DNA from: a virus
Taxonomy: Duplodnaviria; Caudoviricetes
DNA: 64,000 nucleotides
Reading direction: 5' to 3' (one strand)
Virus record (IMG/VR): IMGVR_UViG_3300025150_000002
Span: 128,001-192,000 of that record
A model generated the notes under the pieces. It was not told the DNA's origin. It did no database searches and saw only the letters and a program-made list of their open reading frames with translations. Position numbers and translations under genes: made by a program. How positions within the stretch are numbered: position 1 is the stretch's first letter; each line of letters opens with the position of its first letter. Positions 16,533 through 18,726 of the stretch are shown here, in pieces.

Positions 16533-16859
16533 TTATCGGGACCGCCAGGCTGGTCTTGCGGTGATGACGTGTGACCGCCAGTTAACCGTGCTTCTAGGGA
16601 GACGACGGGCGCCGATAATACGACGGAGTTCGATAGCGTTGGTGAAGTGACCACCTCGAACCACGCAATCCAACAGATGGTCGAACTGGCACGACAGATA
16701 ACCGCCGTCCAACGACGGGCCGTGCACCAGGTCAAGTGTGTGGAGCTCGAATGCCCCTGACTCGTAGTCGATGAACCCTCGCGATGAGAACGTGACTAAC
16801 CCCTGAGTGATGAGATTACGCCAGCGAGCGAGATCGCCATGAAACCCGACATCCACCAT
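16533..16859 (-). CDS. Possible small ORF: prohead-protease-like fragment plus FGE-tail cassette
   Basis: ATG 16859 after GGGGAG; NLITQGLVTFSSRG...DLVHGPS then VVRGGHF...RPAWRSR*. Confidence 0.35.
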   Translation of the reverse strand: MVDVGFHGDLARWRNLITQGLVTFSSRGFIDYESGAFELHTLDLVHGPSLDGGYLSCQFDHLLDCVVRGGHFTNAIELRRIIGARRLPRSTVNWRSHVITARPAWRSR

Positions 16860-18726
16860 TATCCCAGGCTCCCCTGGCGGCTCGCCTGATGCCTGTCTCA
16901 GGACCCGACTCGAATCCCCAGGCACGTCCGCGCTGTTGTGCGTCGGGGGTGTATGGAAGATCTGAGGCGACGGCTGACGGCCAATAGGATCGGACGGACG
17001 GCATTGTGAACCAGGTGAATTCTCCGATGAGAGATCGGTTGGCCGGGGCGCGACCCTGTAGACATCTTGATTCTTGTTCAAGCATGGCCGCAGTAGCGGC
17101 TCGGATAAAGCTGTCGTCTCTGGAGAGGAGAGGGGTCCACTTCTCGACGAGGCTTGCGATGATGGAGTCGGGGTGAAGGTGGGCTGGAAAGATTGTGCTA
17201 AGTGCGGCACCTCCAGGCCGCCCTCGTTCCAATTCCGTCATCTGGCTCGTCGAACAGGCGCGGATCTCTGATGACGATACTGGCTGTGTCACAGGGCCAG
17301 CTGAGGCCTCGGACCGCGACTCTGACGCCACCGTTGTAGGCTCTGTGGATTCTGGCGAGCTCCCGCTCCCAGATTTCACGTGGGTAGATGCGACTGCTGT
17401 TGATGGGATGGATACAGGTGAACGGGCGGCTGATACGAAAGGGTGGTCACCTCGCTCTCCAGGCGGATCGGAGTCCACAATCTGTTGGTGCTGAGCTGAG
17501 CTGTTGCCAGATTCGTTCTGCGTGCCAGGGCACGTGGGGGTAGGACGGTCCTCTGATACAAGCTCCTGGATCTGAAGATCGTTCAGGAACACGGTCATCG
17601 TAGGGTCCGGGCAGACCTCGCCATGAGCGACGAACCCGCTCACCGGAGCACCAGACGTGTTCTCGGACCACATGCAGCGCGTCCACTCGAAGACATTGCC
17701 GCAGTTGTCGTGGAGGCCCCAGTTGTTGGGGTCCTTCAGACCAACAGCCTTGTGCCCCTCTTCCCAGTCTCCACCGAACCAGGCGATCTTCTCTAGATCA
17801 CTGTCGTTGTCTCCGTTCGGATAGCGAGTGGTCGTGCCAGCCCGTGCCGCGTATTCCCACATAGCCTCTGACGGGAGCTGAAAGCCGCACCTTTCACCCT
17901 TCGAGTTCCAGAGCCAGGACTGATACGCCTTCTCTACCGGCTCAGAGAAGATCAGCGCACCGAACTCGCTGATGTCCACCTCACCATCGCTACGACGTGT
18001 GATGGGACCAAAAGGCGTGAGGTCGGCGATTCCGAATTCGACATCAAGCCACCGCACGTAGTCGGATCGCTTGTCGCCCTTTCCCACCCGGAAGAGGGCG
18101 TTGAAGCGCCTCGCGAAGTCGATGCGATTGATCCAGTCCTCGACCTCGCGACACCGGTCCCAACTGACGGACTCGACAGGGTGGTCGCCCCAAAGCCGTT
18201 CATGATCGTCCGCTAGGTCCAGACGCACGGTGTCTGGAATTGATGGAACGCTTCGAGAGTCCTCTGATGTCGAGAACTCGGGGTGCAACTCCTCGACCAT
18301 TGCCCTGGTAGGGAAGTGGGATGGAAACTCACCCGTGACCCGATGCCACTCGCGGCCGGTCCACGGATATTTTGCCATCAAGAATGGCTCGTCGAAGACC
18401 CTCCGAACTGGAGCTGGAGGGTCCTCGTTTTCGTCTTCCTCATCGTCTTCGATGTCCTCGTCTTCGATGGATCGAGTAGGGCCCATCATGAACTCGCCGG
18501 CCGGGAGCAACACGAAGAGCATCCCGGTTGTCTTGTGACGAAACTCGGCAAGTCCCTGAGCATTCAGCCCCGCCGCCGAGTAGAGGGTCGTCTCCTCTAC
18601 TCGAAGGTGGTAGGGGATTTCGGCCCCAGACCGGCTAATTGCTGAGATCAGCTCTAGAAGATCATCGTGGGTTCTAGAGGAGTTGCTGTATCGGCGTTCT
18701 GCGTCGCGCAACCTGGCATCAGACAT
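16816..18726 (-). CDS. FGE-sulfatase (C-type lectin fold) domain protein with chimeric C-terminus
   Basis: LPAGEFMMG, HPVESVSW, LPSEAMWEYAARAG, KDPNNWGLHDNCGNVFEW; the canonical RGGSW...GFR tail is not adjacent in frame. Confidence 0.85.
   Translation of the reverse strand: MSDARLRDAERRYSNSSRTHDDLLELISAISRSGAEIPYHLRVEETTLYSAAGLNAQGLAEFRHKTTGMLFVLLPAGEFMMGPTRSIEDEDIEDDEEDENEDPPAPVRRVFDEPFLMAKYPWTGREWHRVTGEFPSHFPTRAMVEELHPEFSTSEDSRSVPSIPDTVRLDLADDHERLWGDHPVESVSWDRCREVEDWINRIDFARRFNALFRVGKGDKRSDYVRWLDVEFGIADLTPFGPITRRSDGEVDISEFGALIFSEPVEKAYQSWLWNSKGERCGFQLPSEAMWEYAARAGTTTRYPNGDNDSDLEKIAWFGGDWEEGHKAVGLKDPNNWGLHDNCGNVFEWTRCMWSENTSGAPVSGFVAHGEVCPDPTMTVFLNDLQIQELVSEDRPTPTCPGTQNESGNSSAQHQQIVDSDPPGERGDHPFVSAARSPVSIPSTAVASTHVKSGSGSSPESTEPTTVASESRSEASAGPVTQPVSSSEIRACSTSQMTELERGRPGGAALSTIFPAHLHPDSIIASLVEKWTPLLSRDDSFIRAATAAMLEQESRCLQGRAPANRSLIGEFTWFTMPSVRSYWPSAVASDLPYTPDAQQRGRAWGFESGPETGIRRAARGAWDNGGCRVSWRSRSLA

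Follow-up and report, generated by a model that had tools for sequence, protein, structure and literature searches.

A phage FGE-type gene with a series of alternative C-terminal tails that may be selected by ribosomal frameshifting

Results

An FGE-type gene whose core is followed by four tail cassettes

We analyzed a 64,000-nucleotide window (bases 128001-192000) of the linear virus record IMGVR_UViG_3300025150_000002, a phage genome of 203.5 kb (203,521 bp) estimated to be 89% complete, whose window DNA recurs in groundwater, aquifer, and hot-spring metagenomes. The analysis concerns a minus-strand gene for a protein of the formylglycine-generating enzyme (FGE) type, in which the core-encoding part is followed by four units, each ending in a short tail cassette (C1 to C4) and a stop codon (Table 1). 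We refer to the frame of the core as frame 0 and to the -1 frame as frame 2; the tails share the skeleton RG..W ... G.R.AWR.R. All four cassettes were confirmed on the minus strand at the positions and in the frames assigned to them by an initial annotation of this DNA, and frame reading likewise bore out its claim that the main frame stays open across C1 and C2.

The core matches Pfam PF03781 with a score of 85.1 bits (cutoff, 23.3), covering only positions 5 to 205 of the 255 positions of the profile. This match ends at residue 365, just beyond the GNVFEW motif (residues 343 to 348), in agreement with the initial statement that FGE matching stops there. To judge from its sequence, the core of the protein is ligand binding and FGE/C-type-lectin-like, and its last strands are missing; by analogy with the precedents of diversity-generating retroelement (DGR) and STAND proteins, we assume a binding rather than an enzymatic role. 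One relative (P0001) is identical in protein sequence to the entire main open reading frame (ORF). An AlphaFold2 model of the full 636-residue ORF, built from a 12-row alignment, was poor (mean predicted local distance difference test [pLDDT] score of 56, with values below 50 for the core end and the tail).

The cassettes stand out against the rest of the genome. The sequence [AS]WR.R occurs 38 times in the six frames of the 203,521-bp record, with four of these occurrences on one strand within ∼930 bp here, and the more stringent G.R.[AS]WR.R occurs three times in the six frames genome-wide, invariably in this gene region. In seven loci (the window and homologs described below), the anchor followed by a stop was found at 2.0 per kb in the 3' parts of the genes and at 0.048 per kb elsewhere. 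Since motif matches are concentrated in this gene and in the 3' parts of the seven loci, a chance origin of the cassette pattern is excluded.

The FGE-like nature of the tails depended on the profile used. A generic FGE-tail hidden Markov model (HMM), built from 77 unrelated FGE proteins, detected none of C1 to C4 above background in the six frames of the window. In contrast, a family tail HMM trained exclusively on other loci detected C2 (42 bits, 4e-11), C1 (23 bits, 3e-5), and, marginally, C4 (12 bits, E value of 0.1), which were the top three matches in the whole genome. The family HMM did not detect C3; this cassette is supported by orthology to the in-frame ends of the relatives P0002 and P0124. 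The relation of the segments to an FGE tail, as read by eye in the initial annotation, thus stood with the family profile for C2, C1, and marginally C4 and failed with the generic one. No repeat or similarity among the four cassettes was found at the DNA level.

Contigs from four other samples match the covered, larger part of the region without any indels and with a single nucleotide polymorphism, which lies outside the cassettes; this comparison used contigs only, so that rare variants would escape it. The absence of indels argues that the reading frames of the window are real. Codon usage shifts its frame unit by unit along the array, being best in the -1 frame over C2 (17376-17286), in frame 0 over C3, and in the +1 frame over C4 (16836-16566). 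Unit 2 has orthologs in six loci, and unit 4 is homologous to the true C termini of the relatives P0004 to P0007.

A conserved array in a family of homologous loci

A protein search returned about a dozen close relatives of the main ORF, and a profile search returned four more, of 1205 to 1570 amino acids; one search among viral contigs returned no related loci. The DNA of ten further metagenomic loci was read, and all ten were found to encode an FGE core followed by 2 to 14 units, each closed by a tail motif and a stop. Comparison with orthologs, proposed as a check in the initial annotation, thus revealed repeated units and tails in the relatives rather than an unrelated C terminus. In L001 to L006 and the window, the internal cassettes were without exception in frame 2 (22/22) and the closing cassette was in frame 0. 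Further -1-frame cassettes were present in L009 (4 cassettes), L010 (5 cassettes), and L012 (14 cassettes).

In a distant clade consisting of L002, L009, and L010, the -1-frame cassettes are plain FGE tails without the additional fragments described below, and they score 33 to 50 bits (L002 and L009) or 21 to 36 bits (L010) with the generic tail HMM. The diverged tails of the window are therefore tied to the FGE fold. Conservation of unit stops, tails, and slippery motifs extends across phages with cores of only ∼50% identity. By sequence comparison, then, the cassettes appear to be a trait that a small family of phage genes has conserved and not decayed copies, and their initial description as degenerate copies is misleading, as the units are diverged yet orthologously conserved across phages.

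The largest array was observed in L012 (L012:1501-6406), on a 157-kb contig, where 14 consecutive -1 units lie within a 1532-amino-acid "protein." Its junctions carry three types of slippery motif (U_UUU, C_CCU, and C_CCU_UUA), and it has the same frame-0 and +1-frame ending as the window.

Selection on the overlapping frames

In the arrays, frame 2 consists of open segments arranged back-to-back with single stops between them. Frame 0 contains no stop in 3005 array codons, and frame 1 contains 77. Synonymous shuffling of frame 2 usually put stops into frame 0, a mean of 0.2 to 5 per locus being obtained, with the probability of simulating no more stops than observed ranging from 0.001 to 0.78 among six loci.

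The close homologs L003 and L005 were compared by codon position. In the core, mismatches at the three frame-0 codon positions numbered 68/38/145, and in the array they numbered 77/138/100, so that the most variable position moves from position 3 in the core to position 2 in the array, which is position 3 of the -1 frame. The ratio of nonsynonymous to synonymous differences (pN/pS) in frame 2 was 0.49 in the front, fragment-containing stretches of the units and 0.41 in their tails, while the array DNA read in frame 0 yielded 1.01 and the core 0.27. The -1 frame of the L003 and L005 arrays is under purifying selection. Given the low ratio in frame 2 and a ratio near 1 in frame 0, we conclude that selection acts on the -1 units as protein and on the core frame only to keep it open. 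Gene conversion from each phage's own capsid gene cannot account for the constraint on the tails.

No ATG, GTG, or TTG is present in 17 of the 46 units, including the C2 unit of the window, and only 10 of the 46 carry such a codon in their first quarter. Because so many units have no start codon at all, we regard them, on sequence grounds, as parts of one gene and apparently not as separate genes.

Slippery motifs at the unit junctions

We scored 32 strict cassette stops for in-phase slippery motifs immediately downstream, against a background motif rate of 0.009 per codon. C_CCT_TTN followed 15 of them and C_CCY 11, so that 26 of the 32 stops were followed by one or the other. Among the six motif-less stops, four belong to last junctions; there the following unit already lies in the conduit frame (as we call frame 0 across the units) and no shift is needed; at a fifth (L001, position 4504) an in-phase G_GGT_TTC follows. 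The commonest motif is C_CCT_TTY, with 22 of the 25 CCCTTT occurrences in seven genes sharing this phase, and the codon before CCCTTT nearly always ends in C, whatever amino acid it encodes. C_CCY marks the first junctions and is found across the whole of the distant clade. The junction GGAC CCT AY that precedes unit 1 of the window is also present before the first units of L001, L002, L009, L010, and L012.

In Escherichia coli, the motifs found at the junctions, the C_CC.Y tetramer included, are shift-prone, and those of the form H_HH.U_UU.Y are among the most efficient (PMC4066793). Some junctions of the family are followed by strong predicted hairpins (z scores of about -3 to -3.7), which differ in sequence; the mean z score was -1.1. 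Transcriptional slippage was considered as a candidate mechanism and ruled out, as the junctions contain no long homopolymer runs.

The end of the array differs among loci. L003, L005, and L006 have their C3-type unit in the -1 frame and their last one in the conduit frame; L004 lacks a C3-type unit. Everything past the C2-type unit is shifted by one base in the window, L001, and L012, and these loci no longer have the heptamer after C2. As a result of this displacement, C3 is read without a shift. The C4-type unit of these three loci lies in the +1 frame, which is open for 234 to 252 codons, and a frame-0 TTT followed by C is kept at the same junction in all three. The C4 frame of the window also carries a GTG at position 17210, and a 114-amino-acid gene has been called over the L001 counterpart. 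To judge from these sequence features, C4 could be fed either by a +1 slip on UUU_C or by initiation at this GTG. We also searched for a -1 motif by which ribosomes might pass from the C2 frame to that of C4, and there was none.

Capsid- and protease-like fragments ahead of the tails

The phage record contains a gene for a T4-like Gp23 capsid protein, another that is Gp23-like, and one for an S77 prohead protease. In the clade of the window, the parts of the units that precede the tail often match these head proteins of the phage itself. Capsid segments represented in the units are the N terminus, QPM...GGIAFYRPRY, an ANWI-containing stretch, and LDTG.IYSPYIP (E values down to 1e-14); the protease segments are the NGRIYP region and the GVSSRG...FDFV.DP region (E values down to 5e-9). 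No comparable match of the units to any other phage gene was found, and the one other match below 1e-3 arose from an Arg-rich -1-frame reading of the core.

For the individual units, the C2 fragment matched the N-terminal motif of the protease with an E value of 0.02 in the window and 2e-5 in the L004 ortholog. The C3 fragment matched the phage's own Gp23 in tblastn searches (5e-5 in the window, 1e-9 for the L001 ortholog, and 1e-14 for that of L005). Orthologs of the C4 unit matched the S77 protease of the phage analyzed here at 5e-9 to 4e-4; the identity of the C4 fragment comes from these orthologs, since the window's own C4 unit showed no match to the protease at E < 0.05. The stretches ahead of the tails in C2, C3, and C4, which the initial annotation had overlooked, thus appear by sequence to resemble fragments of the capsid or the prohead protease.

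The Peptidase_S77 match (record positions 10150-11950, outside the window) lies in an open frame of 959 amino acids, far above the usual size of a prohead protease, and unit fragments match this frame at ∼11610 and ∼10350. The long frame and the two match sites suggest that the protease gene has acquired a large insertion or undergone a fusion. The second Gp23-like gene is shorter (46214-46882, minus strand; Pfam, 2e-10; open frame of 342 amino acids), some units match it as well as the main capsid gene, and it is possibly a vertex protein gene.

Modelled docking of the C2 unit on the core

When the C2 unit was modelled as a separate chain together with the core, the interface score (ipSAE) reached 0.81 (median of three runs), compared to 0.01 for the best control; the docking mark was reached by 58 of 80 solved complexes and by 2 of 110 mismatched pairs. 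The docking runs shared at least 51% of their contacts, with partner pLDDT values of 40 to 71. In the model, the last 40 residues of C2 pack on strands of the core, with contacts that include residues 115 to 118, 281 to 285, and 345 to 348, and the C2 unit would thereby complete the FGE fold. Since the core and C2 are two halves of one known fold, the docking result shows likeness to the FGE structure and not proven binding.

Gene neighborhood and other features of the genome

The FGE gene is flanked on one side by a gene for a HerA-like ATPase and on the other side by winged-helix and replication genes, and this order is kept in the homologous loci with listed neighbors. The HerA-like gene (18751-20424, minus strand) is the upstream neighbor and matches Pfam DUF87 and HerA_C, the PADLOC model mad8 (1e-17), and several HerA models. 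Given the kept order, the ATPase and the FGE protein may act jointly.

Immediately after the core (17595-17557, minus strand), frame 0 encodes a short amphipathic helix with the pattern F-[LIV]-x-D-[DE]-x-I..., which is kept in all members of the window's clade and was modelled by AlphaFold2 with a pLDDT score of ∼84. Here the conduit is real protein, and the stretch overlaps unit 1 at its start.

Reassignment of a stop codon was ruled out, as all three stop codons are in use genome-wide, terminating 76 (TAG), 51 (TGA), and 33 (TAA) of the long ORFs. A second overlap of long frames was noticed in the window, where a 348-amino-acid ORF with its own ATG (7879-8922, minus strand) overlaps, in the -1 frame, a main frame of 533 amino acids (9299-7701) that is open over the whole stretch examined; both frames were confirmed to be open. 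No slippery motif was found in a search at the start of the 348-amino-acid ORF, and the overlap looks like an arrangement different from the FGE array.

Table 1. Coordinates of the FGE gene, its units, and candidate frameshift sites in the window
Feature	Position	Strand	Description
Main ORF, 636 amino acids	16816..18726	-	Frame 0: FGE core, conduit across units 1 and 2, then unit 3 (C3) in frame
FGE-sulfatase core, residues 71-365	17632..18516	-	Pfam PF03781, without the last 50 profile positions
Candidate -1 site for unit 1	17602..17605	-	C_CCU (GAC CCT ACG), in phase with frame 0
Unit 1	17447..17605	-	-1 frame, 52 amino acids after the putative slip; tail C1 (17560-17450); TGA; family HMM, 23 bits
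Cassette C1	17560-17447	-	-1 frame; stop TGA
Candidate -1 site for unit 2	17437..17443	-	C_CCT_TTC heptamer in frame-0 phase, 7 nt past the first base of the C1 stop
Unit 2	17198..17446	-	-1 frame, 82 amino acids; protease N-terminal-like fragment 17416-17333; tail C2 17314-17201; TAG
Cassette C2	17323-17198	-	-1 frame; stop TAG
Possible +1 site (0 to +1) to unit 4	17187..17190	-	Frame-0 TTT then C (UUU_C), equal to xxT TTC in the +1 frame
Unit 3	16816..17196	-	Frame 0; capsid N-terminus-like fragment 17178-16990; tail C3 16932-16819; TAA
Cassette C3	16932-16816	-	Frame of the 636-amino-acid ORF (18726-16816); stop TAA
+1 frame, 234 open codons	16533..17237	-	Ser/Thr/Pro-rich conduit-like part, then unit 4
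Unit 4	within 16533..17237	-	Protease serine-motif-like fragment 16790-16716; tail C4 16664-16536; TAA
Cassette C4	16664-16533	-	+1 frame; stop TAA

Discussion

We infer that the array is probably read by serial programmed -1 ribosomal frameshifting, which would generate nested isoforms with alternative tails; the support for this is wholly computational. The core would be finished by one of several "completion units," each providing a short Arg/Trp-rich FGE tail and a stop. Internal units would be read in the -1 frame, and the stop-free core frame across them would be a mere conduit. At each junction, just past the preceding stop, some ribosomes would slip on the in-phase motif, read the next unit, and terminate, whereas those that do not slip would continue along the conduit. 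With only a fraction slipping at each junction, one mRNA would give rise to nested proteins with a common core and different tails. Of the two ways in which the initial annotation thought alternative C termini might be selected, frameshifting is thus favored by the in-phase motifs, the open conduit, and purifying selection on the -1 frame in homologs.

For the phage analyzed here, the predicted products are the core with C1, by a slip at C_CCU; the core, a linker, the protease-like fragment, and C2, by a slip at C_CCU_UUC; and the core, a linker, the capsid-N-terminus-like fragment, and C3, with no slip. Their expected sizes are about 425, 512, and 636 amino acids. C4, in the +1 frame, would take a further event, perhaps the +1 slip on UUU_C.

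Several observations speak against this interpretation. Between the window and L001, pN/pS in each unit's own frame (0.67 to 0.71) differs from that of the other frames (0.73 to 1.3) only weakly and at saturated divergence, and for C3 the value of its own frame (0.71) is inseparable from that of the +1 frame (0.73). Codon usage over unit 1 favors frame 0 and not the -1 frame, which makes unit 1 the weakest of the -1 units, and the motif giving access to it is no more than a weak tetramer. The junction counts are not independent, because the motifs descend from repeated units. No hairpin was predicted downstream of the window heptamer (z score of +1.1; pseudoknots were not searched). A conserved GAGGTGA just upstream of the junction motifs resembles a Shine-Dalgarno sequence at short spacing, and work on prfB and dnaX reportedly indicates that such spacing favors +1 rather than -1 shifts. 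Reaching C4 would take a further event. Finally, no RNA run is listed among the public runs in which the phage's DNA occurs.

The units might instead be relics, that is, old tandem duplications of the 3' end that have fallen out of frame, with frame 0 as the only protein and the array serving as a disordered Ser/Thr/Pro linker ahead of a single functional tail. Frame 0 is indeed open and ends in a proper tail at every locus, its reading is of low complexity, and C1 of the window has no coding signal of its own. Nevertheless, we consider this unlikely, as a frame-0 protein would hardly be neutral at the amino acid level (pN/pS of 1.01) while frame 2 is constrained (0.41 to 0.49), nor would decaying copies be expected to keep stops, tails, and slippery motifs among cores of ∼50% identity or, in L002 and L009, to retain -1 tails that still score 33 to 50 bits with a generic FGE profile. 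Somewhat less probable still is an origin as now inactive fossils of DGR activity or retro-insertion, perhaps by template switching onto the abundant mRNAs for capsid and protease. Many DGR targets are known to have an FGE-type tail as their variable region (PMC5758913, PMC10907252), the units join fragments of late, abundant transcripts to a tail, and the last tail of the relative P0011 is Asn-rich and resembles a template repeat. Yet the initial finding that the window encodes no reverse transcriptase extends to the whole 203-kb record (89% complete), which has no RVT_1 match and no pair of template and variable repeats, and no reverse transcriptase was found among the called genes lying up to 10 kb from the homologs. 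The cassettes contain no DNA repeats and did not vary in the contigs of the four other samples, and the differences between L002 cassettes, read by eye in the DNA, show no adenine bias. The retro-insertion branch of the initial annotation is therefore unsupported; such events could explain the origin of the units but not the present selection on the -1 frame.

Very little credence can be given to the upstream units being silent cassettes, as in pilin or vls systems, that donate replacement tails by gene conversion or deletion. The conserved junction sequences of ∼20 nt could act as recombination sites, and the number of units varies from 2 to 14 among homologs, but a junction-to-junction deletion would leave the frame relation unchanged, silent donors would need neither an open conduit nor in-phase slippery motifs, and no rearranged joints, indels, or variants were seen in the contigs of the four other samples. 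Nor were features of a shufflon found: all cassettes lie on one strand, with weak inverted repeats at chance level only and no recombinase gene adjacent or among the neighbors, so that the recombination branch of the initial annotation also lacks support. Altogether, with no reverse transcriptase, no repeat pair, no indels, and three stop codons in use, DGR activity, phase variation, recombination, and codon reassignment are unsupported. We consider it equally improbable that the units are translated alone, through internal starts or reinitiation, as small proteins that complete the core in trans. The model in which core and C2 unit dock as two chains, the GTG in the C4 frame, and the gene called over its L001 counterpart would fit such an arrangement; the lack of any start codon in 17 of the 46 units, among them C2 of the window, and the scarcity of early starts in the others argue against it.

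If serial frameshifting does operate here, its set of alternative frameshift products would far exceed that of any other known bacterial or phage gene, and it would be the first recoding to select among alternative domain-completing segments. It would also represent a second way, beside retroelement mutagenesis, to vary the FGE/C-type-lectin binding face, a fixed, ribosome-level counterpart of DGR diversification. The array is a clean natural case of kilobase-long dual coding with one frame selected only for openness, and for annotation it is a warning that the long Ser/Thr/Pro-rich "proteins" of this family are mostly conduit sequence. The pairing of tails with capsid and protease fragments points to an interaction with head assembly or with host immunity that senses phage heads, and we infer that the function is most likely that of a panel of binding proteins engaging or mimicking head-assembly proteins. 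Whether the gene as a whole is a translational repertoire generator, with up to 14 serial -1 sites per mRNA and hard-wired tails that in one clade bear capsid and protease peptides, perhaps directed at head assembly or at host sensors that recognize head proteins, is a view for which we find belief and doubt about evenly balanced.

In the literature, we found precedents for single-site and two-site frameshifting and no serial array of alternative tails. Like the array, the lambda tail chaperone G/GT, dnaX, and IS3/IS911 combine an in-phase X_XXY_YYZ or Z_ZZN motif with an overlapping -1 ORF and an N terminus common to two products (PMC4066793, PMC5009743). These systems have one site and two products, whereas here 2 to 14 sites would act in series, the zero frame would be a kilobase-long conduit, and each -1 product would be a short, domain-completing tail. 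The gag-pro-pol genes of the retroviruses MMTV and HTLV, as in the array, involve more than one frameshift per mRNA, nested products, and the use of three frames (PMC5009743). Their shifts add up (0 to -1 to -2) and lengthen a polyprotein; those proposed here would be alternative, with each one ending the protein.

In terms of the protein, the closest likeness is to the FGE variable proteins of DGRs, such as Treponema TvpA, which have the same fold and vary its C-terminal RGGSW...GFR region (PMC5758913, PMC5006420). In contrast to these, the array has no reverse transcriptase, template repeat, or population variation, and offers a fixed, gene-encoded set that is apparently chosen in translation. 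Bacterial FGE-sulfatase-like sensors of the STAND/Avs type similarly employ an FGE-like fold to sense proteins by binding them, and such systems commonly target phage capsid proteins (bioRxiv 10.64898/2026.01.04.697583). Unlike those sensors, the protein described here is encoded by the phage, has no NTPase or effector domain, and itself carries capsid- and protease-like fragments.

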